This document shows, piece by piece, positions 6,933 through 55,969 of a DNA stretch of 58,944 nucleotides (within the stretch, counting starts at the first letter, position 1; each line of letters starts with the position of its first letter). The notes beneath the pieces are model-generated. The model worked only from the letters and a program-made list of their open reading frames with translations, made no database searches and was not told the origin of the DNA. The stretch is taken from positions 1 to 58,944 of the forward strand of contig JARRLY010000007.1 in assembly GCA_037386545.1 (NCBI GenBank), written 5' to 3'. The translations under genes and the position numbers were made by a program. This DNA is from Candidatus Bathyarchaeota archaeon. GTDB taxonomy: Archaea > Thermoproteota > Bathyarchaeia > Bathyarchaeales > Bathyarchaeaceae.

Positions 6933-7241
6933 CTTGCTACAGAATTCTTGAAAAAGTAATTTTTTCTAAAATATTGTAGCCTCTAAACTCGCTCAGGATT
7001 ATTTTCGGCGGATGTAGTTACACCTTGGCCAGATGTGCAGGAGTTAATTTTAATCTCTCTCGTTCACGTATCACGTATGCATATGTTTTCATATATCTAG
7101 TGTGCGTGTGTATTCTTTCTTTCACTCTTTCATTCTGTCGTGCATAAGCTGAATATAATAAATTACTTCCAAATTAATTTCCAAAATAGCCCGCAAGACC
7201 TTTATTAATGAAGTTACAATTTTCGAAAGGAGACTCGAGCC

Positions 7242-7985
7242 ATGGATTTCTTTGACCTTATGAGTATTTCACATCGTTATATGGATATACTAAACCCATC
7301 AACAACTGAAAAAATCATCAAACTTGGCAAACTACTTAAATTGAAAAAAGGAAAACGGGTCATCGATTTTGGTTGTGGTAGTGCCGAGTCACTCATTATC
7401 TGGGCTGAAGAATTCGAGATAACGGGTATTGGAATCGATATATCCAAGGATTTCTGTGAAAGGGCCAAGAAAAAGCTGGTTGAGAGAGGTTTATCAGACA
7501 GAATCAAAATCGTTTGCTCCAAAGGAGATGACTACATATTTGAAGAGAGAACTTTCGATGCTGCAACATGTATCGGGGCGACATTTATTTGGGGTGGCTA
7601 CAAGCAAACAATCCAGGCAATGAAAAATGCTATTCATCAAAATGGACGCCTGGGAATCGGTGAAACTCACTGGCTTACCAATCAGGTACATCCAAAATAC
7701 GCCCAAAGACAGACAAGCACCCACACAGAAGCTGAACTGGCTCAAATTACCCGGGATGAAGGCTTTGAACTCGAATACATCATCCGTGCCAGCCCTGACG
7801 ACTGGGAGAGATACTCTTCGGATTGCTGGTATGCACTAATACGCTGGCTTAAAGAAAATCCAAGCCACCCCGACCATGAACAGGTATTCAAGCATTTTCG
7901 CACTTCCCAAGATGACTATTTACAGTTCCAGCGCCAATACATGGGTTGGGCGATGTACTGCCTCACTTCCATAAAAGCTAATTAA
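7242..7985 (+). CDS. class I SAM-dependent methyltransferase
   Basis: VIDFGCGS motif I, GIDIS, FDAATCIGA. Confidence 0.85.
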   Translation: MDFFDLMSISHRYMDILNPSTTEKIIKLGKLLKLKKGKRVIDFGCGSAESLIIWAEEFEITGIGIDISKDFCERAKKKLVERGLSDRIKIVCSKGDDYIFEERTFDAATCIGATFIWGGYKQTIQAMKNAIHQNGRLGIGETHWLTNQVHPKYAQRQTSTHTEAELAQITRDEGFELEYIIRASPDDWERYSSDCWYALIRWLKENPSHPDHEQVFKHFRTSQDDYLQFQRQYMGWAMYCLTSIKAN

Positions 7986-25923: not shown

Positions 25924-26904
25924 ATGTCAACGGAATTAGCGGCAGAATTGTTGAAATTAACGGCGATTGCAGGATTAGCCATCGCAGCAACACTTACCAT
26001 AATGATATGGAAAAAGGGCAGAACATCAAAAGTTACTTACATCAAGTTTGTCATTCAAGTTTTATCGTTAGTTGGAACGTTTTACTTATTTTCATACCCG
26101 ATAAGACCACTATACATAGCATTAGTTATTTTGTTAATGCCCATAATTTTAGGCAGATTCTTTTGTGGATGGCTTTGCCCGTTTGGGCTAGTTATGGACG
26201 TAATTACCGTAATCCGAAAAGCTGCCAAAATACGTTACAGAATAATCCCCGATAGACTCAACAAAATGTTTCACAATCTCAGATATGTGCTCATAATTGG
26301 TTTTCTGATTCTCGCTGTTGTATTCAGCATAATGGAACCTCCATCAACAGGGAACGTTTTAACCATTAGAATGATGCATTTTGCAGGTGCATTTGAACAC
26401 TTGGGAATTTTACTCAGTCCATTGAATCCAATAATTGTGCCGTGGACAGGTCCCCTTGAAATCGGTGGAATATACTTTAGTTACCCATACATACAAGAGG
26501 TAATCAAATACACAGGAGATAACTTTGCCACAGTTAGCGCATTAGCATTTTTGGTTTTAACAGTTGTAGCTTCATTTTTTGTGAGACGATTTTGGTGCAG
26601 ATTCTGCCCAACAGGAGCCTCAATTGCGGTACTAAACAAGATTAAAGGTTTCAAATGGGCTCCAGTGTTTCATCTAGATAAGAACGAAGAAAAATGTACC
26701 AAGTGTGGAATTTGCAAAAGAGTCTGTCCAGTTCAAGTAACTGAAATTTATGAACAAAAGGGAGGAAAAATCATGACATCTATGTGCATGTTATGTGCAA
26801 GATGTGTAGAAATGTGCCCTTACGAGGACTGTTTGAAAATAAAATTTGGCAAAAAAACAATAATCAAATCCCGTAACTGGTTAGAACCATCAGACCTTGA
26901 ATGA
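25924..26904 (+). CDS. NapH/MauN-like membrane polyferredoxin
   Basis: TM helices, GRFFCGWLCP, RFWCRFCP, two CxxCxxCxxxCP motifs. Confidence 0.88.
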   Translation: MSTELAAELLKLTAIAGLAIAATLTIMIWKKGRTSKVTYIKFVIQVLSLVGTFYLFSYPIRPLYIALVILLMPIILGRFFCGWLCPFGLVMDVITVIRKAAKIRYRIIPDRLNKMFHNLRYVLIIGFLILAVVFSIMEPPSTGNVLTIRMMHFAGAFEHLGILLSPLNPIIVPWTGPLEIGGIYFSYPYIQEVIKYTGDNFATVSALAFLVLTVVASFFVRRFWCRFCPTGASIAVLNKIKGFKWAPVFHLDKNEEKCTKCGICKRVCPVQVTEIYEQKGGKIMTSMCMLCARCVEMCPYEDCLKIKFGKKTIIKSRNWLEPSDLE

Positions 26905-27005: not shown

Positions 27006-29879
27006 ATGCATTTTGCTATTCTGGTTGGTGGAATTGTTTTGGGTTTTAAATTAACTAAAATGAAAACGTTTTTGCTAGCAGACTTGGTCCTTCTGGCTTT
27101 TGTAATTCCAGGTTACTTTTATTTCAGTTCTCAGGTGTCAAATCCTCCGGAGTTTCAGGTAACAAACTTGAGTCTTGATTTTGATTGGATTCAAGTTGGA
27201 GATTCAGCAACAATAACAGCTGATGTGAAAAATGTTGGAGACGTAAGCGGCAATTATTCTGTTGTTTTGATAATTGATGATGTTGCAGTGGAATCAAAAG
27301 ATGTGCAACTCGCTGGGGGAGAAACAAAAATGGTTTTGTTCACCAGAACTGAGCAAATAGAAGGAACATACACGGTAACCATAGATGATTTGACAAAAAC
27401 GCTCAAGGTAACAACAGAAAAACCAACCAAACAAGCATCCCTACAAATAAATGAAATAGTAACTAGTCGACAAGAAGTAGGAATCGGAGAACAAATAACA
27501 GTTTCAGTTACCTCAACTAACATTGGAGACGTTACTGGAGAGTTCTCCCTCGAACTTTATGTAAACAACGCAAAACAAGAAACTAAAAGCATTATGTTAG
27601 CAGGAGGAGAAACCACAACAACATTTTTTGAGTTCTCTAAAAGCAAAGAAGGAGAATATGTTGTAAAAGTTGAAGATACAACTGCTACATTTACTGTTAG
27701 TGCTGATGCACCACCAGCAGAGCCTGCAATGTTTATAGAATCGGATTTAACAATTAATCCTTCATTGGTTACAGATAACGAAATTGTAAAAATTTCTGCT
27801 AAAATAAATAATATTGGAGAAACAACTGGTGATTATACAGTTAATCTGAAAATTGATGGAATACCAGAAGATTCAGTTACTGTTAATTTGCCAGGTCAAT
27901 CATCTAAAATCGTATCATTTGAAGTTACAAAGACAATCTCAGGCACATATACTGTTGAGGTAAACGGTTTGTCAGATTCATTTACTGTCGAAGGTTTAAC
28001 TCCTGCATCTGAAAACACATACATTCACGGATTAACGGTTTCACCCTATGAAGTCTGGGGAGGTGAAACAGTTACTGTCAGAGCTAAAGCAGATAATCTT
28101 GTAAATGAACAAAGCACACTTCATTTGAGAATCAAAATCGAAGGACAAGGCGAAACAATCCAGACATACACATTAGCAGCAGGTGCAACAGATGTACCTA
28201 TTGAGTTTACAGTTACAGCACCAGATGAAGCAGTAGAAGGAGAAACAACAGGTTACAAAGTTGAATTGGTGAATGTTGCAAATCAAACTAACAAATTGAC
28301 TGGATATTTCCAAGTTGCCCCTGATGGATACCATACCATCTCGATTAACAGGTCGGGTGGAGGTAGCACCCCAATGATATTTACCTTTGATGGGGAAACA
28401 CTTGAGTCCCCATATTCTGCACTGTTACCAGTAGGGGATTATGAAATTAGTACAGATGAAATCGTTGAACTTGAACATGGAGTAGTTGAGTTTGACCACT
28501 GGAACGATGGTGTAACAGATGAAAGTAGAACCATTACATTAGACAGGCACCTGTCGGTATTAGCAAACTATATTGTAATCAGTGGATATGCATCTTGTCC
28601 TTCGCTGTATTTCTGGAATGGAAACGATTACACGTACACTACAGAAGTTTCAAACGCAGGTTGGTTAGGATATATTGACTACATCACAGATGATGGCGAC
28701 ATAGTGTTTGGCGGAGGCAACCCATGGGATCATGTGAAACTGGATCAAGCTGAGTTAGCAACAAAAACTGACACAGAAGGAGAATATTTTGACTTAGTTC
28801 TGTTCCAACAATGGAATGAAATATTCTATTTTGACAGCGCATACATGGTGGTTGTTGACCACCCCAACGACACCGAGGTTTACTCCACAATGGTAAATTA
28901 TGTTAACAAAGGCTCTTACAACGAGGTGTACACAATTGACCCTGACAACTTGTTAACACCAGTTTCAGCAGTAACCCAAGATGGAGAAGATGTCCTAGAC
29001 ATAATATCAGAACTTGACAGCATATTCACACCATCAACCAACGGGGTTGACAGCCAATCATGGGACAACATAACATACAACCAATTAACAATAGACTTGG
29101 GCGATTTATCTGACGCAGAAGAAATCAAACTAGTAATCAACGGAATGGTTGACTGGGGGCCAGCACAACCATACTACGACTGGATAGAGCAATTCAAAGA
29201 AGCAGCCGCTCAAGGATTAGTAGAAAATGGCACACAAATTAACCCACCAGCATACATGGAAGTTATGGACCCAGAAGGCAACTGGATACAAGTTTCCCAA
29301 GACAGACAAATGCCAATTCCAGGGGATTATGTTGCCCGAAGTTTTGCTGTAGATTTGAATGGGCTGTTCGCAGAAGACACAACAGAATACAAGATTAGAA
29401 TAACTAACTTCTGGAACGTAACCTTTGATTACATTGGAATCGACATAAGCAAACAAGAAAACATTAAAGTCACAGAAATTATGCCCCTAGCAACCCTTGA
29501 ACCATTAGAATACGCATTAACAACCACAAATGCTTCAGGAAACTTCACAAAATACGGTGATGTAACCGAATTGCTTATCGAAACAGATGACAAATACGTT
29601 ATTGGATTGCAAGCAGACACAATTTACCTAAAGTTCTATACTGCAGAAATTCCAGAACTTGAAGAAGGAATGAACAGAAGCTACTTCTTGTTTGTAGCAT
29701 CATGGTTCAAAGACCACTACGGAAACTGGGGGTACGAATTTGATTTCACAGTAGAACCATTACCCTTCCGAGCCATGAGTGGCTTCCCGTATCCAGACAC
29801 CGAACAATATCCAATGACAAAAGAAGAATATGAACAATACTTCAGCGAATGGAACACTAGAGTAGTAAACGTACCATAA
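27006..29879 (+). CDS. membrane-anchored surface protein with about four CARDB/Ig-like repeats and a large C-terminal domain starting SCP
   Basis: N-terminal TM; repeated I.A.V.N.G...G.Y...L.I units; SCPSLYFWNG opens an acidic C-terminal domain. The true start may be a few codons downstream. Confidence 0.8.
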   Translation: MHFAILVGGIVLGFKLTKMKTFLLADLVLLAFVIPGYFYFSSQVSNPPEFQVTNLSLDFDWIQVGDSATITADVKNVGDVSGNYSVVLIIDDVAVESKDVQLAGGETKMVLFTRTEQIEGTYTVTIDDLTKTLKVTTEKPTKQASLQINEIVTSRQEVGIGEQITVSVTSTNIGDVTGEFSLELYVNNAKQETKSIMLAGGETTTTFFEFSKSKEGEYVVKVEDTTATFTVSADAPPAEPAMFIESDLTINPSLVTDNEIVKISAKINNIGETTGDYTVNLKIDGIPEDSVTVNLPGQSSKIVSFEVTKTISGTYTVEVNGLSDSFTVEGLTPASENTYIHGLTVSPYEVWGGETVTVRAKADNLVNEQSTLHLRIKIEGQGETIQTYTLAAGATDVPIEFTVTAPDEAVEGETTGYKVELVNVANQTNKLTGYFQVAPDGYHTISINRSGGGSTPMIFTFDGETLESPYSALLPVGDYEISTDEIVELEHGVVEFDHWNDGVTDESRTITLDRHLSVLANYIVISGYASCPSLYFWNGNDYTYTTEVSNAGWLGYIDYITDDGDIVFGGGNPWDHVKLDQAELATKTDTEGEYFDLVLFQQWNEIFYFDSAYMVVVDHPNDTEVYSTMVNYVNKGSYNEVYTIDPDNLLTPVSAVTQDGEDVLDIISELDSIFTPSTNGVDSQSWDNITYNQLTIDLGDLSDAEEIKLVINGMVDWGPAQPYYDWIEQFKEAAAQGLVENGTQINPPAYMEVMDPEGNWIQVSQDRQMPIPGDYVARSFAVDLNGLFAEDTTEYKIRITNFWNVTFDYIGIDISKQENIKVTEIMPLATLEPLEYALTTTNASGNFTKYGDVTELLIETDDKYVIGLQADTIYLKFYTAEIPELEEGMNRSYFLFVASWFKDHYGNWGYEFDFTVEPLPFRAMSGFPYPDTEQYPMTKEEYEQYFSEWNTRVVNVP

Positions 29880-45186: not shown

Positions 45187-45990
45187 TCAACAAAACGAGG
45201 ACTTACCGAGGAAATTCCAATCCTCGGTCACAAACTTTTCTTTTTTTAATTTTTCTGCAAGCTTTTTTTCATATTCAGTTAAGGGTTCTTGAACAAATTC
45301 TACGTTCAAGGCTTTTTCAAAGCCCGCAACTAAGGCTTTGTAGGCTTGTTGAACTGAAAAATCTGGGTTTATGTCATGTTTTACACACCCAAGTTTGCGT
45401 TTTGCAACCCCTATTACCGTGTCTAGATTGGTTGACCAAGGCACCTTAAGCAACTTGAACATAGTAGGGTAGTCTATTACAAGCAAAAAGGTGCCATGTT
45501 GCATTAAAACCCCTTTTTTGGTAGTTTGAGCGTTTCCAGAAATCTTTTTTCCAGCTACAGAAAGGTTAGGACACCGCTTCGGGTCAGGAGGATTATAATC
45601 GGCGTTGGCACCTAAGATTTTTACCGCCTCGTTCAGTCCAGTGCAAATTTTTTGGTAAGCCCCTAAAAGGTCCAAGTTTTTGCATCCAAGGTCAACTGTC
45701 TTTGCTGTTATGCTATAGGTAATTTCGCCATTCTTGTCATGATATACAGCCCCACCACCACTGATTCTTCGTACTATGTCTACGTGTTGTTTTTTGCACT
45801 CTTCAATGTTGATTTCATTTTCTATTTTTTGGAAGCGCCCAACTGAAACGGTAGAAGGATTCCACATGTAAAATCGTAAAGTGTTAGAAACCTTGTTTTG
45901 AGTTCTAGCGATAAGGATTGCCTCGTCGACTGCCATGTTTGTGTATGCATCTGCGGTTTCGAGTTTTAAAAGTCTCCAACGGTCAGACAA
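45187..45990 (-). CDS. lipoate/octanoate-protein ligase (LplA/LipM family)
   Basis: NMAVDEA, RRISGGGAVYHD, KKISGNAQ, QHGT. Start taken at TTG 45990. Confidence 0.9.
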   Translation of the reverse strand: MSDRWRLLKLETADAYTNMAVDEAILIARTQNKVSNTLRFYMWNPSTVSVGRFQKIENEINIEECKKQHVDIVRRISGGGAVYHDKNGEITYSITAKTVDLGCKNLDLLGAYQKICTGLNEAVKILGANADYNPPDPKRCPNLSVAGKKISGNAQTTKKGVLMQHGTFLLVIDYPTMFKLLKVPWSTNLDTVIGVAKRKLGCVKHDINPDFSVQQAYKALVAGFEKALNVEFVQEPLTEYEKKLAEKLKKEKFVTEDWNFLGKSSFC

Positions 45991-46260
45991 GTAGACATCC
46001 TCAGAACTAAAAACATGAAAAGAGACTATTAAAGACTGCAAAATCAAGTTTTGTACAGTACATTTTTTTCTGAAATAGGGCGATTTTTGACAATCCACCT
46101 CTATTAATATGTTCAAGGAATATAAGGAACCAATATTGTCTTGCTAGGGAATTTCAGAAAAAATATGGTTTCAACATTCAAGTGTTATTAGATACTAATA
46201 TGTTAGTTAACAGCATAAAAGCAATATTGCAAATAAGAGAAAAGTAGTTTGGGAAATTGA

Positions 46261-46569
46261 ATGCGTATTAATCCTGTTGTTTTGTTGGTTTTGGTTAATG
46301 TTTTGGTAATTGGTTTTGGTGGAGTTCTTGCGTTTTCTGATTTGAACAATCGAACTTATTCTACCATTACTCATTCAACTACACGGGTTGTTTCGGTTGA
46401 ATACGGTGTTCTTAGTTATCGTCCAACTTATCAGTACTACGACAGGGGGCCATCCCAAGTTGTGATTGTGCAGGGTTCGTGGACTTTTGATTTTTTTCAG
46501 TTTGCAATTCTTATTATGGTAATTTTTGACATCAGATGGATCTATGTTAACAAAAAAAGTTTGAATTGA
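46261..46569 (+). CDS. small 2-TM protein
   Basis: N- and C-terminal hydrophobic helices. Confidence 0.55.
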   Translation: MRINPVVLLVLVNVLVIGFGGVLAFSDLNNRTYSTITHSTTRVVSVEYGVLSYRPTYQYYDRGPSQVVIVQGSWTFDFFQFAILIMVIFDIRWIYVNKKSLN

Positions 46570-46659: not shown

Positions 46660-47343
46660 ATGACTGTTCTAGAACAGATTTCAGACCCGTATCTTGGTTC
46701 ATTGGTTTTTGGCTTACTGTACGGGCTCACTTTTTGTGCGTCGTCTTGTCTGCCGTATATTATTAGTTACATTGCAGGAATTGGGGCAGGATTCAAGCAA
46801 GGAGTAATTGTAACCACAATCTACAATGCGGGACGAATAGTAGCCTACGCCATAATCGGAACCATTGTAGGTTTGCTCAGTGCGGTTGTGAGTGAAGATT
46901 TCTTTAGTTCATACCAACAATACAGTGCAGTTGCCTTCAGTGCAATCACAGTTTTGATTGGAGCAACCATACTAATGAAAAAACAAAACAGCAGCTGCGA
47001 CTGCAAAGAGCAAAAACCTGACAGATTCGGAATCGCAAAACTAACCGACAGATTTGACCTAAGGGCATTTTTCATGGGTTTTAGTCGAGGATTTATTTTG
47101 TGTCCTCCTTTGATTGCCCTCTTGGTTTTTGCCGCGACTTTTGGTCAGATTAACCCCACAGTTATGGCAGTTTTGTTTGGATTAGGAACAGCAATTTCCC
47201 CCCTTTTGATTCTGGGGGGAGCCACAGGTTGGCTACTAAAAAAGGCACCAATGTTCACGAAATGGTTGTCCAAAATTGGGGGAATCGCCCTTGTTCTCAT
47301 GGGACTAAGCGTGTTAATAAGTTCGTTAATCGAATTTACTTGA
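46660..47343 (+). CDS. DsbD/CcdA-like (TauE/SafE, DsbD_2) membrane protein
   Basis: About 6 TM; FCASSCLPY in TM1, YNAGRIVAY, LCPPL, FGLGT. Confidence 0.78.
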   Translation: MTVLEQISDPYLGSLVFGLLYGLTFCASSCLPYIISYIAGIGAGFKQGVIVTTIYNAGRIVAYAIIGTIVGLLSAVVSEDFFSSYQQYSAVAFSAITVLIGATILMKKQNSSCDCKEQKPDRFGIAKLTDRFDLRAFFMGFSRGFILCPPLIALLVFAATFGQINPTVMAVLFGLGTAISPLLILGGATGWLLKKAPMFTKWLSKIGGIALVLMGLSVLISSLIEFT

Positions 47344-47358
47344 AGGAATGAAAAAACC

Positions 47359-48537
47359 GTGCTAGAAATCATAGCTGAATCGTTGCTGGTAATAATTACA
47401 TTAGCTTTGATTATAGCGGGAAGTCTGGCAATTGTAATCTGGGTAAGAAACAACACTAGAAAACTAAGCACACTACGGCTGTTCGTCCAGATTGTTGCAG
47501 TTGTTTTGATTTTTCTGGGATTAATAATTGGACCCTTTGGACAAGAAAAATGGGAATACCTAGGAACAGCACCCAAAGACATCGCCATAGGCAAAGAAAT
47601 CTTTGGAAGACCCTACCCAGACGGGCTAACTGTGCCTACCTTTTCGTGTTACTACGCCTCAGGGAGAACTGCAACTTGTGTAGTCTGGCAACTGCAAAGT
47701 TATCTGTTTCCTGATTTTGGCACCAGCAGCGTTTATGCCACAACCGGAGTGGAACGTTTGGCAATAGCAGCGGGATTGCTCATAGTAATGTCCATAATTT
47801 TTGGGCGATTCCTTTGCGGATGGATATGCCCCTTCGGGTTGTACATGGATTTGCTTACACGATTACGAAAAGCTTTGAAAATCAAGCACTGGACTCTCTC
47901 CGACAGAACCAACGAAGCTTTACGACAGGCCAGATACTTGATTATTGCCGCGTTTTTGATTTTAAGCGTCATTTTAGGCATGCGAGCCATAGCAGGAGTT
48001 GAACTAATCTCAGAAACGGAACTGGGACGTTACCTTGAGATACCCTTCTGCCAAGTTTGTCCAGCAAAACCCTTGTTTGTTCTAGTAGAAGGCGCTTTGG
48101 GATTCATGGATGTAGATTACATGATGTCCCAAACTATTGGGGATTTTGCGTTGACAGGGTGGTATCTTACTTCAATTAACATTATAGTTCTCAGCGTTGT
48201 TACTGGGGGCTCATTTATGATTCGCAGATTGTGGTGCCGAATCTGCCCTTTGGGAGGGCTAATAGCGATCTTTAGCAGATTTGGGCCCTTTAAGAAAATT
48301 TCATTAATCAAACTAACCAAAGTAGAAGAAAAATGCACAAAATGCGGCATATGTAAAAGGGTGTGTCCCCCACAGGTTACAGAAGTCTACGACGAGAAAG
48401 GAGGAGACGTAACTGTTTCATCGTGCATCCTGTGCTTCAGATGCGTAGAGATGTGCCCATACGAGGATTGCCTGAAGGTGGAAGTTGCAGGCAAGCCCAT
48501 ATACAAATCCAAAAACTGGCTAAAAGAAGAAGAATGA
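47359..48537 (+). CDS. NapH/MauN-like membrane polyferredoxin
   Basis: GRFLCGWICP, FCQVCP, WCRICP, two CxxCxxCxxxCP motifs, extra Cys pair SCYY...TCVV in a loop. Confidence 0.88.
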   Translation: MLEIIAESLLVIITLALIIAGSLAIVIWVRNNTRKLSTLRLFVQIVAVVLIFLGLIIGPFGQEKWEYLGTAPKDIAIGKEIFGRPYPDGLTVPTFSCYYASGRTATCVVWQLQSYLFPDFGTSSVYATTGVERLAIAAGLLIVMSIIFGRFLCGWICPFGLYMDLLTRLRKALKIKHWTLSDRTNEALRQARYLIIAAFLILSVILGMRAIAGVELISETELGRYLEIPFCQVCPAKPLFVLVEGALGFMDVDYMMSQTIGDFALTGWYLTSINIIVLSVVTGGSFMIRRLWCRICPLGGLIAIFSRFGPFKKISLIKLTKVEEKCTKCGICKRVCPPQVTEVYDEKGGDVTVSSCILCFRCVEMCPYEDCLKVEVAGKPIYKSKNWLKEEE

Positions 48538-48547
48538 GGAAAACCAA

Positions 48548-49882
48548 ATGGCAAGTGAAATCGAAAAAGGAACAAAATACATCCCAGAGATGAGCAAATC
48601 CGAAATCGATGACTTGAACAAGTCAATGAAAACATCATCCCTGAAAGTAATTGAAGACAACATCGAAAAAATGAAAAAATCATGGAAAAACCGACCAAAA
48701 GCCATGGAATATTTCGATGAAATCTCAAACCTTTTTGGAAAACGCCAAGAAGAAATCAAAAAACAAAAAGCCGCAGGCAAAAAAGTCATCGGATACTCAT
48801 GCATTTTTGCCCCCATAGAAATGATTCTAGCAGCAGACGCCATCCCCGTTCGTGTCGGCTCGGGATGGTATGACAGCGCCAAACTGGGAGACAGAATCAT
48901 GCCAGTAGAAGTCTGCCCAGTTATCCGCTCCACCGTAGGAGCACAAATGGTTAATTTATCACCCTTTTTGGAACTAAGCGATGCAATTGTAATGCCTCTT
49001 ACATGTGACGGCAGAACCAAACTAAGCGAAATGCTCGCAGACCACAAACCGATCTGGCGCATGAACCCCCCACGAGTAAAAGACGACCCCCACACCCTGA
49101 GCATGTGGAAACAAGAAATAATGGTAATCAAAGAAAAAATTGAAAAACTAACTGGAAACAAAATTGACAGAAAAAACCTGAAAGCCGCCATCGAAAAAAT
49201 GCAACAAGCAACCAAAGCATTTCGTAGACTCCAAGACCTACGCAAAGGCAACCCTGTAATCAACGGACGAGACGCCATGCTGGTAAACCAAACCGCCCTA
49301 TGGGACGACATAGAACGCTGGACCCAAAAAGTTAACGAGCTCTGTGATGAGCTAGAAAAACGTCTGGAACAAAAAGAATACTCAACATACCCAGACACAC
49401 CAAGGGTAATGCTAACTGGAACTCCCATGATTTGGCCCGACAGCTGGAAGGTCCCAAACTTGATTGAGGAATCTGACCCTCAAGGAATTGTTGTAGTTGA
49501 CGAACAATGCTCCGGAGATAGAATCCTATACGACCCAGTAGGAGTTGATGAGTGGACCATGAGCGACATGATTGATGCTATCGGCGAGCGGTATTTAATG
49601 GCTTGTACTTGTCCTTGTTTTACTTCTGAACACGGAAACGAAGACCGAATCAACTGGATAATCGATCGAATAAAAGAATACAAAGTCGACGGCGTAATCT
49701 ACTACGTTGTTCGAGGCTGCATACTTTACGCCATGGAATACCAACGGATCAAAAATGTGCTTGATGCAATGAATATACCTGTGTATTACCTTGACACAGA
49801 ATACACCCGCGAAGACGTGGGACAAATGAAAACACGCGTTGAAGCATTTCTGGAAATGCTGGAAGCACGGATGGACATTTAA
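48548..49882 (+). CDS. 2-hydroxyacyl-CoA dehydratase-family single-chain protein, double-cubane (DCCP)-like reductase
   Basis: Six spaced Cys motifs: GYSC, EVCP, LTCDG, EQCSG, CTCPC, GCILY; C-terminal TRVEAFLEML. Confidence 0.8.
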   Translation: MASEIEKGTKYIPEMSKSEIDDLNKSMKTSSLKVIEDNIEKMKKSWKNRPKAMEYFDEISNLFGKRQEEIKKQKAAGKKVIGYSCIFAPIEMILAADAIPVRVGSGWYDSAKLGDRIMPVEVCPVIRSTVGAQMVNLSPFLELSDAIVMPLTCDGRTKLSEMLADHKPIWRMNPPRVKDDPHTLSMWKQEIMVIKEKIEKLTGNKIDRKNLKAAIEKMQQATKAFRRLQDLRKGNPVINGRDAMLVNQTALWDDIERWTQKVNELCDELEKRLEQKEYSTYPDTPRVMLTGTPMIWPDSWKVPNLIEESDPQGIVVVDEQCSGDRILYDPVGVDEWTMSDMIDAIGERYLMACTCPCFTSEHGNEDRINWIIDRIKEYKVDGVIYYVVRGCILYAMEYQRIKNVLDAMNIPVYYLDTEYTREDVGQMKTRVEAFLEMLEARMDI

Positions 49883-49895
49883 GAGGAGAATTAAA

Positions 49896-50693
49896 GTGAT
49901 AGTTTCTGCCGGAGTAGACATGGGCACCCAAAGGGTAAAAGTCGCAATAATAAAAGACAAACAAGTCGTCGGCAAAGCCCAAGAATTTGTAGGATTTGAA
50001 CCCACAAAAGCCGCCGAAAAAGCCCTAGAAGAAGCACTAAAAAGTGCTAATATTTCTCGAGAAGAACTAGAACACATAACCGCCACGGGAGCAGGAGTAG
50101 ACATGGCAACTTTCGCCGACAGCAAAGTCAGCATGATGGGAGCCGACGCAAAAGCTGGAGTATACTTTTTCAAGTCTGCCCGAACAGTGATCGACGTCGG
50201 AGCCGAAGACGCCCGAGCAGTCAAATGTGACGAATACGGAATCATGCAAGACTTCATTGTAAACGCCCGATGTGCAGCCGGTGCCGGAACTTTTATCGAA
50301 GCCATGGCACGAGCTCTGGAAGTTGAGCTGGAAGACATGGGCCCGCTGTCCTTGAAAGCAGAAAGGGCAAGCCCAATAAACGCAAGCTGCGTAATTTTTG
50401 CAGAATCAGACGTAGTTTCCCTTATTCACCGTGAAGAACCCAAAAGCGAAATTGCCCGAGCAATATTTGACGCCATGGCGGAAAGAGTTGCATCCATGGT
50501 AAAACGGTTAGGAGTAAACCCTGACATAGTTCTTGTAGGGGGAGTAGCTAAAGACGAGGGATTTGTGGCTTCTTTGAAACGGCGTCTAGGAATTGAATTA
50601 CTGATTCCTGAAGAACCCATTTATGCAGGGGCAATTGGAGCAGCTTTAGTTGCCGCAAAAAAAGCTAAACGTGCAAGGAGACGAGCACAATGA
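49896..50693 (+). CDS. ASKHA-type ATP-dependent activator, BzdP/BcrD-like
   Basis: GVDMG, ATGAG, IDVGAE, RCAAGAG, SCVIFAES, VGGVA; GTG start after GAGGAG. Confidence 0.85.
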   Translation: MIVSAGVDMGTQRVKVAIIKDKQVVGKAQEFVGFEPTKAAEKALEEALKSANISREELEHITATGAGVDMATFADSKVSMMGADAKAGVYFFKSARTVIDVGAEDARAVKCDEYGIMQDFIVNARCAAGAGTFIEAMARALEVELEDMGPLSLKAERASPINASCVIFAESDVVSLIHREEPKSEIARAIFDAMAERVASMVKRLGVNPDIVLVGGVAKDEGFVASLKRRLGIELLIPEEPIYAGAIGAALVAAKKAKRARRRAQ

Positions 50694-51592
50694 CAAACAA
50701 CAACGAAAAAAAGGAATACTGGCGTTGGCTGGAATACAAAAAAATAAGACCAAACATGGACCCAAAAAAAGCCAACATAATAACCGCCGGAGTAGACGTT
50801 GGTTCTGTTGGCTCTAAAGCAGTAATAATGCTAGACGGAAAAATCTATGCATGGAGCGTAATGCGCACGGGATCAAACAGCTCCGACAGTGCCAAAAAAG
50901 CTCTGGGATGGGCCATGGAAGACACTGGATTAACTCTTGATGATTTTCACTACATCGTGGGAACAGGTTACGGACGAGTAAACGTTCCCATGGCAAACCG
51001 AGCAATCACAGAAATTGCGTGCCACGCCAAAGGCGCCAACTACATCTGGGGACCAACAGTTAGAACCGTTCTGGATGTTGGTGGACAAGACGTTAAAGCA
51101 ATCAAAGTCGACCAAAACGGAAAAGTTGTAAGTTTTCTAATGAACGATAAATGCGCGGCAGGCACAGGACGAGGAATGGAAGTAATAGCTGACCTGCTAA
51201 AAATCCCAATCGAAGATGTGGGTAAAGTCTCGTTAAGCGTAACTGAAGAACCCAAACCAGTCAGCAGCACATGTGTAGTTTTCGCAAAAACTGAGGCAGT
51301 TGGTTTGCTCCGAAAAGGCTGGACCAAAGAAAAAGTTATAGCAGCATACGTCAAAGCCATGGCAATCCGAATGAGCGAGCTTATCGAAAAAGTGGGTTGC
51401 GAAAAAGACTTCGTAATCACGGGTGGACAGTCCAAAAACATTGGAATTGTAGACCGGGTGGAGAAAATTCTAGGCGTAAAAAGGTTGCCGGTTCCAAACC
51501 TTGAAGAAACAGGATTGGATCCTGCTTCTGCTGGTGCAATTGGGGCGGCTTTGTTTGCTAAAGCATTATACGAAAAATCCCAAAAACAATGA
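50690..51592 (+). CDS. ASKHA-type ATP-dependent activator, BzdQ/BcrA-like
   Basis: N-terminal EYWRW extension, GVDVGSV, GTGYGR, EIACHAKG, DVGGQD, MNDKCAAGTG, STCVVFA. Confidence 0.87.
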   Translation: MTNNNEKKEYWRWLEYKKIRPNMDPKKANIITAGVDVGSVGSKAVIMLDGKIYAWSVMRTGSNSSDSAKKALGWAMEDTGLTLDDFHYIVGTGYGRVNVPMANRAITEIACHAKGANYIWGPTVRTVLDVGGQDVKAIKVDQNGKVVSFLMNDKCAAGTGRGMEVIADLLKIPIEDVGKVSLSVTEEPKPVSSTCVVFAKTEAVGLLRKGWTKEKVIAAYVKAMAIRMSELIEKVGCEKDFVITGGQSKNIGIVDRVEKILGVKRLPVPNLEETGLDPASAGAIGAALFAKALYEKSQKQ

Positions 51593-51610
51593 ATCAAAGG
51601 TGAAGGAAAA

Positions 51611-51898
51611 ATAATAACATATTATGGTTACACTGATGGCTCTGGCGAATATTACATAGTTATTGACGCAGACAAATGCAACAGCTGCGGAGAATGCATT
51701 AGTGCATGCCCTCAACAAGCCTTGCAAATGGAAGACATTTTCATAGACCTAGAAGACAAATCAGTCGCTGCAGTCACAAAAGAGCACCGCAAAAAAATCC
51801 GATATACTTGTTCGTCCTGCAAGCCAGAGGAAAACAGCCTGCCTTGTGTTGAAGCATGCAAACAAAAAGCCATTTCGTGCATCTGGAAGCCCAAGTAA
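51611..51898 (+). CDS. BzdM-like ferredoxin with probable ATA start
   Basis: Not in ORF track. Translates (M)ITYYGYTDGSGEYYIVIDADKCNSCGECISACP...IRYTCSSCKP...PCVEACKQKAISCIWKPK; GGTGA SD upstream. Confidence 0.82.
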   Translation: MITYYGYTDGSGEYYIVIDADKCNSCGECISACPQQALQMEDIFIDLEDKSVAAVTKEHRKKIRYTCSSCKPEENSLPCVEACKQKAISCIWKPK

Positions 51899-53940: not shown

Positions 53941-54522
53941 ATGAAATGGGCATTGATTTCTGTTCACGACAAATCTGGAATAGTTGATTTCGCTAAGGAA
54001 CTCAACAAACAAGGATTTTGTGTTATTTCCACAGGGGGAAGTTTAACCACTCTTAAAGAAGGTGGAGTTTCAAAGGTTAAACATGTTTCCGAAATAACTG
54101 GTTTTCCTGAAATACTAGAAGGTAGAATTAAAACAGTGCATCCAAAAATTTTGGGGGGAATTCTCGCACTAAGAAACAACCCAGCTCACATAAGGGAACT
54201 TGAACAATTTCAGATAGAACCGATTGATCTGGTTATTTGTAATTTGTATCCTTTTGAAAAAATAACAAAAGAAGAAGGGGCAACTCTAAAAACAGCTTTA
54301 GAAAACATCGACATTGGGGGTCCGAACATGATTCGTGCGGCTGCAAAAAATTTTGAAAACGTGGTCGTAGTTGTTAAACCAAGCAGGTACATGCAGGTTC
54401 TTGAAGAATACAAAAAGAATGGTGATGTTAGTTTTGAAACTCGAAAAGTTTTGGCTGTTGAAGCTTTCCAACAAACTTCACGATACGATTCAGTAATCAG
54501 GGAATTTTTAGAAAAAACATAA
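53941..54522 (+). CDS. purH: IMP cyclohydrolase (stand-alone N-terminal MGS-like domain of PurH)
   Basis: ALISV.DK.G, STGG, TGFPEILEGR.KT.HP, ENIDIGGP.MIRAAAKN; no transformylase domain. Confidence 0.85.
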   Translation: MKWALISVHDKSGIVDFAKELNKQGFCVISTGGSLTTLKEGGVSKVKHVSEITGFPEILEGRIKTVHPKILGGILALRNNPAHIRELEQFQIEPIDLVICNLYPFEKITKEEGATLKTALENIDIGGPNMIRAAAKNFENVVVVVKPSRYMQVLEEYKKNGDVSFETRKVLAVEAFQQTSRYDSVIREFLEKT

Positions 54523-54579: not shown

Positions 54580-55969
54580 ATGAAATTCAGTTGCTACGGC
54601 GGGGTCGGCGACATTGGTGGAAACAAAATCCTAGTTAAAATGGGAAAAGCATCAATTTTTCTTGATTTTGGATTATCTTACAGCGAGGAGGGATTGTTTT
54701 TTGAAGAATTTTTACAACCCCGTTCAGGCTGTAAAATACACGATTTACTAAAACTGGGAATGCTACCAAAAATTAATGGAATCTACCGGCAAGACGCCCT
54801 TTGCCCAAAAGATTTTGAAAACTACAATGTTCGCGCAAAAGATTTTTGGAAAACAAACATTCAAAGTTTTGAAGAAGCACAAACAATTAACCGCAACAAA
54901 AGACCGAAAAATGGCACAACTAAAAACGGGTTATTTTCCGGGTGAACCAAAAGTTGGATATGCAAAACAAGAAATTAACCGAGAGTTTTGCAACCTAGAG
55001 CACAAAGAGCCGCAAACAATCAAAAACGAGTTGACGGTTACAGCATTTGAAGTGGACCATTCAATACCAGGATCTATGTCGTGTTTGCTTGAGTCAAAAG
55101 GCGTTCAGGTCTTGTATACAGGGGATATTCGTTTTCATGGCAAATCAGGCTATAACCTCGGAGACGAACTAAATGGTCTTGTCCCTGATGTTATGTTTTG
55201 TGAAGGCACTCGTATCGACAAAACTGAACCGGACAACGAAAAGCAAGTAGAGTCAGACCTCGCAGAAATTTTTTCTGAATCTGAAGGTTTGGTTATGGTG
55301 GGTTTCACATGGAAAGACATAGACAGATACGAAACTGTAAGGGATGCAGCAATAAAAAGCGGAAAGACCCCAGTTTTTGACCCAAGGTTAGCTTACCTTC
55401 TGGCAAGATTAGGTAGAAGCGTGTATGATGAAGGAGCAACTGTGTTTCTTGAACGGTGTGGTTCTATGCTTTATTCTCCAGGAGATTACAGCAACTACAA
55501 GCACAAAGTTGGGGACATGGCTCTTTCCGAGTGGAGCAACAATCGGGACAACAAAACCGTGGACACAAAACACCTCGAAAAAGGAGTTGACGCCCTTGAA
55601 CTCAACAAAAATCCTTCAAGCTATGTGTTACATATGGACTATTTTAGATTCAAAAACATTTTAGATTTCAATCTTCCCGAGGGCTCCGTATTTGTAAGGG
55701 CACAATGTGAACCTTTCAATCCCAGAATGGAACTTTCTCAAAAAAGGATGATACGGTGGCTCGAACACTTTAACATTAACGCCAAAAATGATTACAAACC
55801 ATATCAAATTCACGCTAGCGGTCATGCTTCAGGTCCAGAAATACAAGATATGATAAACAAAATCAAACCCAAACTGTTGGTTCCTGTTCATACAAAAAAC
55901 CCCAAACGATTCAAGAACCCTGCTGGTGGAATTTACACTCCAGTAAAGGGTGAAGAAAAGACATTTTGA
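54580..55969 (+). pseudogene. beta-CASP metallo-beta-lactamase (RNase J-like), frameshifted and internally deleted as assembled
   Basis: N-part GGVGDIGGNKI..FLDFG; C-part in another frame with VDHS, YTGD.RFHG, EGT, HASGH, PVH. HxHxDH is absent. Confidence 0.8.

Follow-up and report, generated by a model that had tools for sequence, protein, structure and literature searches.

Does an operon whose relatives are annotated as benzoyl-CoA reductase encode that enzyme and, if it does not, where do its electrons go? This question is raised by six co-oriented genes at positions 46660 to 51898 of a 58,944-nucleotide stretch of DNA (hereafter, the window) from a Candidatus Bathyarchaeota archaeon (contig JARRLY010000007.1). 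An earlier note, made from the sequence alone, took them for a membrane-fed reductase combining a double-cubane acceptor with a Bzd-type activator. We find that the operon is a real, conserved variant of the double-cubane protein (DCCP) system with a predicted membrane outlet. The hybrid composition, the likely mislabelling and the linkage of membrane and reductase genes, all proposed in the note, stood up to analysis. Its membrane-fed direction did not turn out to be the best reading, and the note had missed a surface protein (S), NapH paralogues as candidate outlets and the double cubane of BzdN.

A conserved operon around a double-cubane protein

The genes, all on the plus strand, encode a CcdA/DsbD_2-like membrane protein (227 aa, 46660..47343; PF13386 E 7e-23, PF02683), a NapH-like membrane polyferredoxin (392 aa, 47359..48537; PF12801 and Fer4), the DCCP itself (D, 444 aa, 48548..49882; PF06050, NF040772), two ASKHA ATPase subunits, P of BzdP type (265 aa, 49896..50693; PF01869, cluster Cys 126 and 165) and Q of BzdQ type (300 aa, 50690..51592; PF01869, TIGR03192, cluster Cys 155 and 195), and a BzdM-type 2[4Fe-4S] ferredoxin (M, 95 aa, 51611..51898; Fer4). 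They are spaced by 15, 10, 13, −4 and 18 nt, as expected from the short gaps and overlaps noticed earlier. These values assume that P starts at GTG 49896, which has an AGGAG site in front (the start in the open reading frame (ORF) list, TTG 49839, was set aside), and that the ferredoxin probably starts at ATA 51611, because no ATG, GTG or TTG lies ahead of its first Cys motif. The same order of D, P, Q and ferredoxin is found at 24 of 27 named loci; of 66 further loci, which we selected from the 137 genomes with DCCP, 64 have it as well. The arrangement is therefore not due to chance. Of the exceptions, two named and two further loci are cut, the named ones by contig ends, and locus L028 is truncated and without ATPases. 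An ORF at 46261-46569 was rejected as a conserved member, having matches in 2/27 and 2/66 loci. In a single RNA run holding 7% of the words, contigs cover D, P, Q and the ferredoxin as short pieces, with no membrane gene and no gene junction bridged. A sigma-70 promoter scan, a model unsuited to archaea, gave chance-level results (11 versus 11.6). An Rfam scan of 11 loci returned no match, and thus no cobalamin riboswitch in them.

The 444-aa chain passes the NCBIfam double-cubane model NF040772 marginally (354 bits, cut-off 350) and fails the BzdN model TIGR03190 (90 bits, cut-off 453.8), on which the true BzdN of a relative scores 441.6; it also fails the BcrC and BzdO models. Its closest PDB chains are the DCCP structures 7yyl and 6eno (E 2e-81), compared with E 1e-24 for BzdN. 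The AlphaFold model (predicted local distance difference test score, pLDDT, 92) matches 6ENO with a template-modelling (TM) score of 0.88 over 429 columns, versus 390 columns aligned to BzdN. A tree likewise separates the chain from BzdN and BzdO, and no partner subunit was found elsewhere in the genome (87.7% complete). Six of its nine Cys could be placed on the ligand positions of 6ENO: C85, C123, C153, C321 and C355 are present in 148/148 orthologues and C391 in 147, with one X. The seventh Cys (Cys94 equivalent), kept by most sister sequences, is absent, as position 104 is G, N, S or D but never C in the 148 orthologues (G104 here). R102, considered as a BzdN-like trait, was dropped because it is kept in 12/12 sister sequences. 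The DCCP relatives with names all come from Bathyarchaeia or from one Thermoproteota single-cell genome, the best match being Bathyarchaeum tardum (93% identity).

According to Jeoung et al. (2020; PMC7317905), DCCPs of classes I and II carry the seventh Cys, an N-terminal extension closes the CoA channel in class I, and class III proteins, of ~550 aa, have six Cys and are fused to the reductase. The protein studied here has six Cys, a long N-terminal extension (modelled as a helix at 17-45) and a gene that stands alone, and it falls outside all three classes. It resembles the DCCP/DCCP-R system of Carboxydothermus hydrogenoformans (6ENO, 7YYL, 7YZM) in having a one-chain acceptor with six cluster Cys, an N-terminal extension, ~35-38% identity and an ASKHA activase. 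It differs in the missing Cys94 equivalent, in a heterodimeric BzdPQ activase with ferredoxin, in its separate clade with a conserved acidic patch, in its membrane polyferredoxin partner and in a genome without SelD. With 2-hydroxyacyl-CoA dehydratase (HadBC/HadI) the operon shares the fold family and activase type; however, that enzyme has alpha and beta subunits with three Cys each, whereas the operon lacks an alpha subunit and its single chain has six Cys and belongs to a separate clade.

A second DCCP type, 39% identical and retaining the seventh Cys, was found at loci L069, L070 (508 bits on NF040772) and L072 and in many genomes of family f8. It adjoins a DsrE-like gene, and L069 and L070 add a single activase, SelD and sulfur-transporter-like genes. 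The context in which Haft places DCCPs, with SelD and the SAO locus, is another one (10.1101/2022.07.06.499078). We rejected a selenium link for the present operon: its genome lacks SelD, which adjoins the second, unrelated DCCP type (L070).

Distinction from benzoyl-CoA reductase

The view that the operon encodes a benzoyl-CoA reductase draws on the Bzd-type P, Q and M, on the Joint Genome Institute (JGI) labels of relatives (BcrC, BadD and HgdB) and on papers that take bcr genes as aromatic degradation in Bathyarchaeia (PMC6472368, PMC12694404, 10.64898/2026.05.21.726758). To these labels, which bear out the predicted mislabelling, can be added B. tardum, for which three adjacent genes called 'BcrACD' have been described, with no BcrB and with benzoate being inhibitory (PMC10477458); judged by gene layout, not locus tags, 'BcrACD' fits the D-P-Q arrangement. 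Like the class I Bzd enzyme (BzdNOPQ, M, V; PDB 8S02), the operon has a PQ activase with a BzdM ferredoxin, and identity to the true operons of related Bathyarchaeia is 47-59% for P, 63-71% for Q and 51-60% for M. A double cubane serves BzdN, too, as an electron store (PMC11971306), a feature that the operon DCCP presumably shares.

The catalytic part tells a different story. We surveyed 301 genomes of the order, each at least 80% complete. DCCP matches were present in 138, from which one (G215, holding only the 38% second type) was dropped, leaving 137; bzdO scored above cut-off in 23, with any match at 1e-20 in 33. The two sets do not overlap, against 10.5 genomes expected if independent (counts here treat related genomes as independent, though kin are not), so that the two operon types share no genome. 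In the window's genus, DCCP occurs in 19/20 genomes and bzdO in 0/20. The genome itself (87.7% complete) contains a single PF06050 gene, and BzdO, BzdV, Dch, Had and Oah have no orthologue in it (best matches to dch, had and oah only 31%, 26% and 23%), in keeping with the earlier remark that partner-subunit and ring-cleavage genes are missing. Among genomes that we selected, oah is above cut-off in 1/50 with DCCP versus 7/23 with bzdO. The likeness of the 444-aa chain to BzdN amounts to just 25-28%, and by score and tree position the chain is no BzdN subunit; nor is it a BzdO (three Cys, Trp46 and His131), whose Trp46 and His131 columns hold Cys85 and Arg156. Taken together with the inhibition of B. 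tardum by benzoate, these comparisons indicate that the operon is not a benzoyl-CoA reductase; the opposite view is largely refuted and seems scarcely credible.

Genuine bzdN-O-P-Q-M-V operons do exist in the order (23/301 genomes; for example, loci L058, L060-L062 and L065-L067), some next to had and oah. Since oah is present in only 7 of the 23 bzdO genomes, another ring-opening route may be possible there.

Origin of the activase and ferredoxin

P and Q are 31% identical, in contrast to the homodimeric activase of DCCP/DCCP-R. Q reaches 380.3 bits on TIGR03192 (bzdQ), just above the cut-off of 380.2. In a quick tree of 84 rows (all trees here are quick trees or FastTree trees), P and Q of these operons form one clade each (Shimodaira-Hasegawa-like approximate likelihood ratio support 99) inside archaeal BzdP and BzdQ, respectively. 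P retains both cluster Cys, and its catalytic Glu is replaced by Met, likewise in some archaeal BzdP. These placements suggest that the activase of this DCCP was borrowed from the lineage of Bzd-type benzoyl-CoA reductases. Together with the NF040772 match and the DCCP clade they sustain the hybrid of DCCP-type acceptor, Bzd-type activase and ferredoxin that had been suspected.

Combinations of DCCP with BzdPQ(M) were also seen outside the Bathyarchaeial clade (L205, L193, L181 and L196), for example on a contig of 30% guanine plus cytosine (GC) with Q 69% identical. As to the ferredoxin, its start is often near-cognate (ATA, ATT, ATC or GTT) after a GGTGA-like site, in the window (51611-51613) and in 77 related loci. 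Canonical ATG, GTG or TTG stands at this position in only 26/77 loci, and 25/77 have none in frame, while the start is canonical in 6/6 true bzd operons. Gene callers are thus expected to miss or truncate this ferredoxin.

Linkage to membrane proteins

The NapH-like protein has five hydrophobic segments, CGWxCP and CxxCP motifs, two C-terminal [4Fe-4S] motifs and Cys 97, 107, 231 and 234 in outer loops. It shares CX3CP-type motifs, the two [4Fe-4S] motifs and extracytoplasmic partners with the NapH/PceC/NosR/CcoG-YccM polyferredoxins (PMC8238504; PMC7558416). Unlike them, it scores below the NapH quinol dehydrogenase cut-off (TIGR02163, 85 bits versus 213), has no FMN-binding (flavin mononucleotide) domain that we could find, and has an ATP-driven double cubane, not quinol, as its predicted redox partner; there is also a weak NosR match. 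The CcdA-like protein conserves C26, C30, C115 and C148 in 14/14 orthologues, and C30 and C148 are the two PC-type membrane Cys of CcdA/DsbD, as the earlier note had read them. No thioredoxin-like partner was noted in the loci read, no genome-wide search having been made. NapH-like and DsbD proteins have been described as conduits to extracytosolic partners (PMC8238504).

The suspected coupling of these membrane genes to the reductase genes is supported by co-occurrence. The NapH family is present in 137/137 DCCP genomes versus 4/164 others, and the CcdA-like gene in 118/137 versus 3/164. Many ccdA-like genes of the window's genus retain only their first 40-75 codons, in front of the DCCP gene (L080, L083, L089, L091, L012, L015 and L019), and some of these genomes hold a full copy elsewhere.

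A metagenome search with an alignment of 12 sister sequences confirmed 124 loci, of which the best 80 were kept. These range from 25 to 72% GC and carry source labels including Omnitrophota and Altiarchaeales. Among the 59 with at least 700 nt of flank, the NapH-like gene lies immediately upstream of DCCP in 38, and 44 have one at any position; at least two of the remaining loci (L204 and L217) have long NapH fusions. NapH-linked DCCPs form one clade (47/79 rows, FastTree support 99), separate from the DCCP_Ch-like (C. hydrogenoformans), BzdN and BzdO groups. Since NapH precedes related DCCPs in 38/59 loci, whereas their activase may be a single one, an independent pair or BzdPQ, the NapH-DCCP link is older than the Bzd activase. 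In L204 and L217 the fused part is a secreted-type domain of ~600-700 aa with no Pfam match, which stands alone beside DCCP in L224 and L233. At L170 a NifB-like radical SAM gene (7039-7896; TIGR01290 252 bits, below its cut-off) comes after the NapH, DCCP and ATPase genes; members of its cluster occur in three metagenomic loci.

A predicted interface between DCCP and NapH

Complex models of DCCP with the NapH-like protein gave interface scores (ipSAE, interaction prediction score from aligned errors) of 0.78, 0.77 and 0.78, the best of three controls giving 0.00; contact agreement between runs was at least 96% and partner pLDDT at least 72. The mark for this score is reached by 116/157 solved and 2/215 mismatched pairs and is roughly valid here, as our own alignments were used. 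A profile search for a solved NapH-like chain found none, only ferredoxin domains. In the model, DCCP residues 329-354 and 366-376 face NapH residues 323-335, 365-367 and 386-389, with the first cluster motif of NapH (323-335) against DCCP 329-354, between ligands C321 and C355. The three Cys of BzdO, which sit at the proximal cluster half (PMC11971306), align with C123, C153 and C391; C85, C321 and C355 would therefore be the distal-half ligands. The patch is clade-specific: P330 is found in 52/53 linked versus 0/15 unlinked DCCPs, and R334 of NapH in 51/53. The model thus predicts that the ferredoxin domain of NapH docks on a clade-specific DCCP patch near the ATPase-distal half of the cluster.

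DCCP-R contacts its DCCP at N111, Q408 and a C-terminal loop/helix (PMC9351452). By alignment, N111 and Q408 correspond to ~E121 and Q426 here, outside the NapH patch. DCCP of this type is thus likely, according to the model, to have a second port besides the entry port.

Surface protein S and NapH paralogues

A second NapH-like gene lies elsewhere in the window (326 aa, 25924..26904, +); its product is 43% identical to the operon copy, carries the same docking motif and lacks the outer-loop Cys. It adjoins the gene for S, a membrane-anchored surface protein of 957 aa (27006..29879, +; start possibly TTG 27039) made of PF07705 CARDB repeats and a 430-aa domain of no assigned function with one invariant Cys. 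S is present in 130/137 DCCP genomes versus 5/164 others, and five genomes without S are also without the NapH gene that adjoins it. Where both places are listed (117 genomes), S is immediately upstream of the operon in 71, elsewhere on the contig in 11 and on other contigs in 35. In the 66 further loci it is upstream in 36, and the commonest order, S-C-N-D-P-Q-M, is exact in 17. By this co-occurrence, S qualifies as a seventh member of the gene set. No NCBIfam match and no PDB sequence match under E 0.1 were found for it, and with its profile none of the 80 metagenomic loci gave a match (best E 0.13). The model of S is of middling quality (pLDDT 69.5), and Foldseek gave no clear match; a fold search (VIA) retrieved carbohydrate-binding jelly rolls (Z 5.8-8.9), and Atlas unnamed bacterial clusters at 0.90-0.93.

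The paralogue type found next to S directly precedes DCCP in many relatives. Genomes have 1 to 5 NapH copies, most of them next to or fused with secreted proteins, and the neighbours in most lineages are secreted or anchored proteins. Surface neighbours in other lineages include propeller, C25 peptidase and glycoside-hydrolase-like proteins; in L199 the module is flanked by TonB receptors and CbiF-like methyltransferases, and L197 has a DUF4198 protein there. The matching basic docking motif is kept in 12/12 aligned Bathyarchaeial NapH copies, six of them outside the operon and one of these in the window. Because the paralogues keep this motif, their sequences suggest several outlets of one DCCP hub.

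Direction of electron flow

The proposal that we favour, with about an even chance of being right, is that PQ and M pump electrons into DCCP and from there through NapH to membrane or surface partners, rather than to benzoyl-CoA. Reduced M would load the [4Fe-4S] cluster between P and Q, by analogy with homologues. ATP hydrolysis would then force an electron onto the proximal half of the [8Fe-9S] cluster, as shown for DCCP/DCCP-R. From the distal half it would pass across the predicted interface to the first [4Fe-4S] cluster of the NapH-like protein and, as anatomy and linkage suggest, on to a membrane Cys/metal site or to an outer partner (S or the CcdA-like protein). One DCCP-PQM hub would likely serve several NapH paralogues with different outer partners.

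In this scheme the second port is an exit, with electrons leaving DCCP for the membrane, a direction that seems likelier than the reverse and has about an even chance of being right. We read it so because the activase is one-way and because neither dithionite nor Ti(III) reduces the cluster of DCCP_Ch unless ATP is present (PMC7317905, PMC9351452), which would make an ordinary membrane cluster a poor donor. This resistance and the docking by the ATPase-distal half favour NapH as acceptor and are the reason why 'membrane-fed' is not the best description. We only tentatively extend this to an ATP-driven transmembrane electron pump, in which a cytoplasmic double-cubane hub with a captured benzoyl-CoA reductase activase exports electrons, below the normal biological redox range, via interchangeable membrane polyferredoxins to surface proteins; as a whole, this extension is possible but on balance doubtful. 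Corrinoid Co(II)/Co(I) couples require very low potentials. With low confidence, the likeliest class of final acceptor is a hard-to-reduce metal centre (a chelated metal or a corrinoid for uptake).

Several observations weigh against the favoured scheme. The direction of flow is deduced indirectly, and a model score alone does not show binding in the cell. BzdNO takes its first electron above −450 mV and DCCP keeps two Arg near the distal half (R102 and R325), so that this half might accept an electron from NapH. S has one Cys and no flavinylation or heme motif, its fold likeness is limited to the carbohydrate-binding jelly roll, surface neighbours vary by lineage, and the metal link is based on two loci. 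In addition, 16 of the 66 further loci have no NapH upstream (the family is still in the genome), in eight both membrane genes are missing apart from a short ccdA remnant, and the co-occurrence counts follow a few lineages and are not independent.

Reversing the flow at the same interface yields a membrane-fed reductase, in which the distal half receives an ordinary-potential electron from NapH, PQ adds a low-potential one, and DCCP reduces a small inert molecule. We keep this possibility, although we consider it unlikely, because of the potential at which BzdNO accepts its first electron. It would account for the absence of BzdV, the NAD(P)H:ferredoxin oxidoreductase-like protein behind M in true bzd operons, and many related loci have no ferredoxin, so that NapH could be the donor. 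DCCP_Ch, moreover, reduces acetylene, and the N-terminal extension resembles the channel-closing one. However, the resistance of DCCP_Ch to dithionite and Ti(III) is hard to reconcile with such a feed, there is no evident membrane donor below ~−450 mV, the Cys at the cluster opening is lost in 148/148 orthologues, and several NapH paralogues with different outer partners around one DCCP look more like outlets than like a single feed.

Two other roles were considered. DCCP might be a cytoplasmic reductive activator of corrinoid proteins, standing in for RACE or an activating enzyme (AE), with the membrane genes as accessories. The O-demethylase corrinoid protein of B. tardum, for which no activating enzyme was reported to be found (PMC10477458), would suit this role, as would the lower frequency of RACo (PF14574) in DCCP genomes (5/30 versus 12/25 others, in genomes that we selected and that are not independent). 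We nevertheless regard it as quite improbable: five genomes hold both RACo and DCCP, no corrinoid gene stands beside the operon in the Bathyarchaeial loci read gene by gene, and the conserved partner with a predicted interface is NapH. A function in redox sensing or regulation, whereby NapH/S pairs would signal to DCCP that a ligand is present outside, with small electron throughput, is more improbable still. S does resemble a binding protein (CARDB plus jelly roll), the NapH-like protein has its weak NosR match, and the ferredoxin start codon is often weak, but the operon has neither an output domain nor a regulator as a conserved companion, and an ATP-driven activase would be a costly sensor design.

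Other features of the window

Between 32205 and 39090 lie what we take, by eye, to be MvhAG-like hydrogenase genes, a flavin disulfide oxidoreductase, a glycine-cleavage H protein and two radical SAM genes like LipS1/LipS2; a lipoate ligase lies at 45187-46116. A lone 193-aa ORF at 53941-54522 presumably corresponds to the IMP-cyclohydrolase half of PurH only. Overlapping ORFs of 121 and 397 aa in different frames at 54580-55969 look by eye like one frameshift-split gene of the metallo-beta-lactamase fold.

Implications

A literature search, with subscription papers outside its coverage, retrieved no paper on a NapH-linked DCCP or a DCCP/Bzd-activase hybrid; the mLife supplements have no matching terms, and the available part of PMC10116835 is silent on the operon locus. 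New here are the predicted NapH-DCCP interface, S as a probable seventh gene and the NapH paralogues that keep the docking motif. With the look-alike in 137 and true bzdO in 23 of 301 genomes, bcr calls are no evidence of aromatic-ring reduction in these lineages. The statement covers the 301 genomes surveyed, and some Bathyarchaeia do carry the real enzyme.

The natural role of double-cubane proteins is described as an open question (PMC7317905, PMC11971306). The predicted relay, if true, would give the family a testable job. With the residues of the predicted, clade-specific second port named, a handful of proteins would suffice to test the partner and the direction of flow, and B. tardum offers a relative in culture. 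If the export pump is true, abundant sediment archaea and many uncultured bacteria could reduce refractory targets outside the cell, for example metals bound to humic matter or lignin, or corrinoids.

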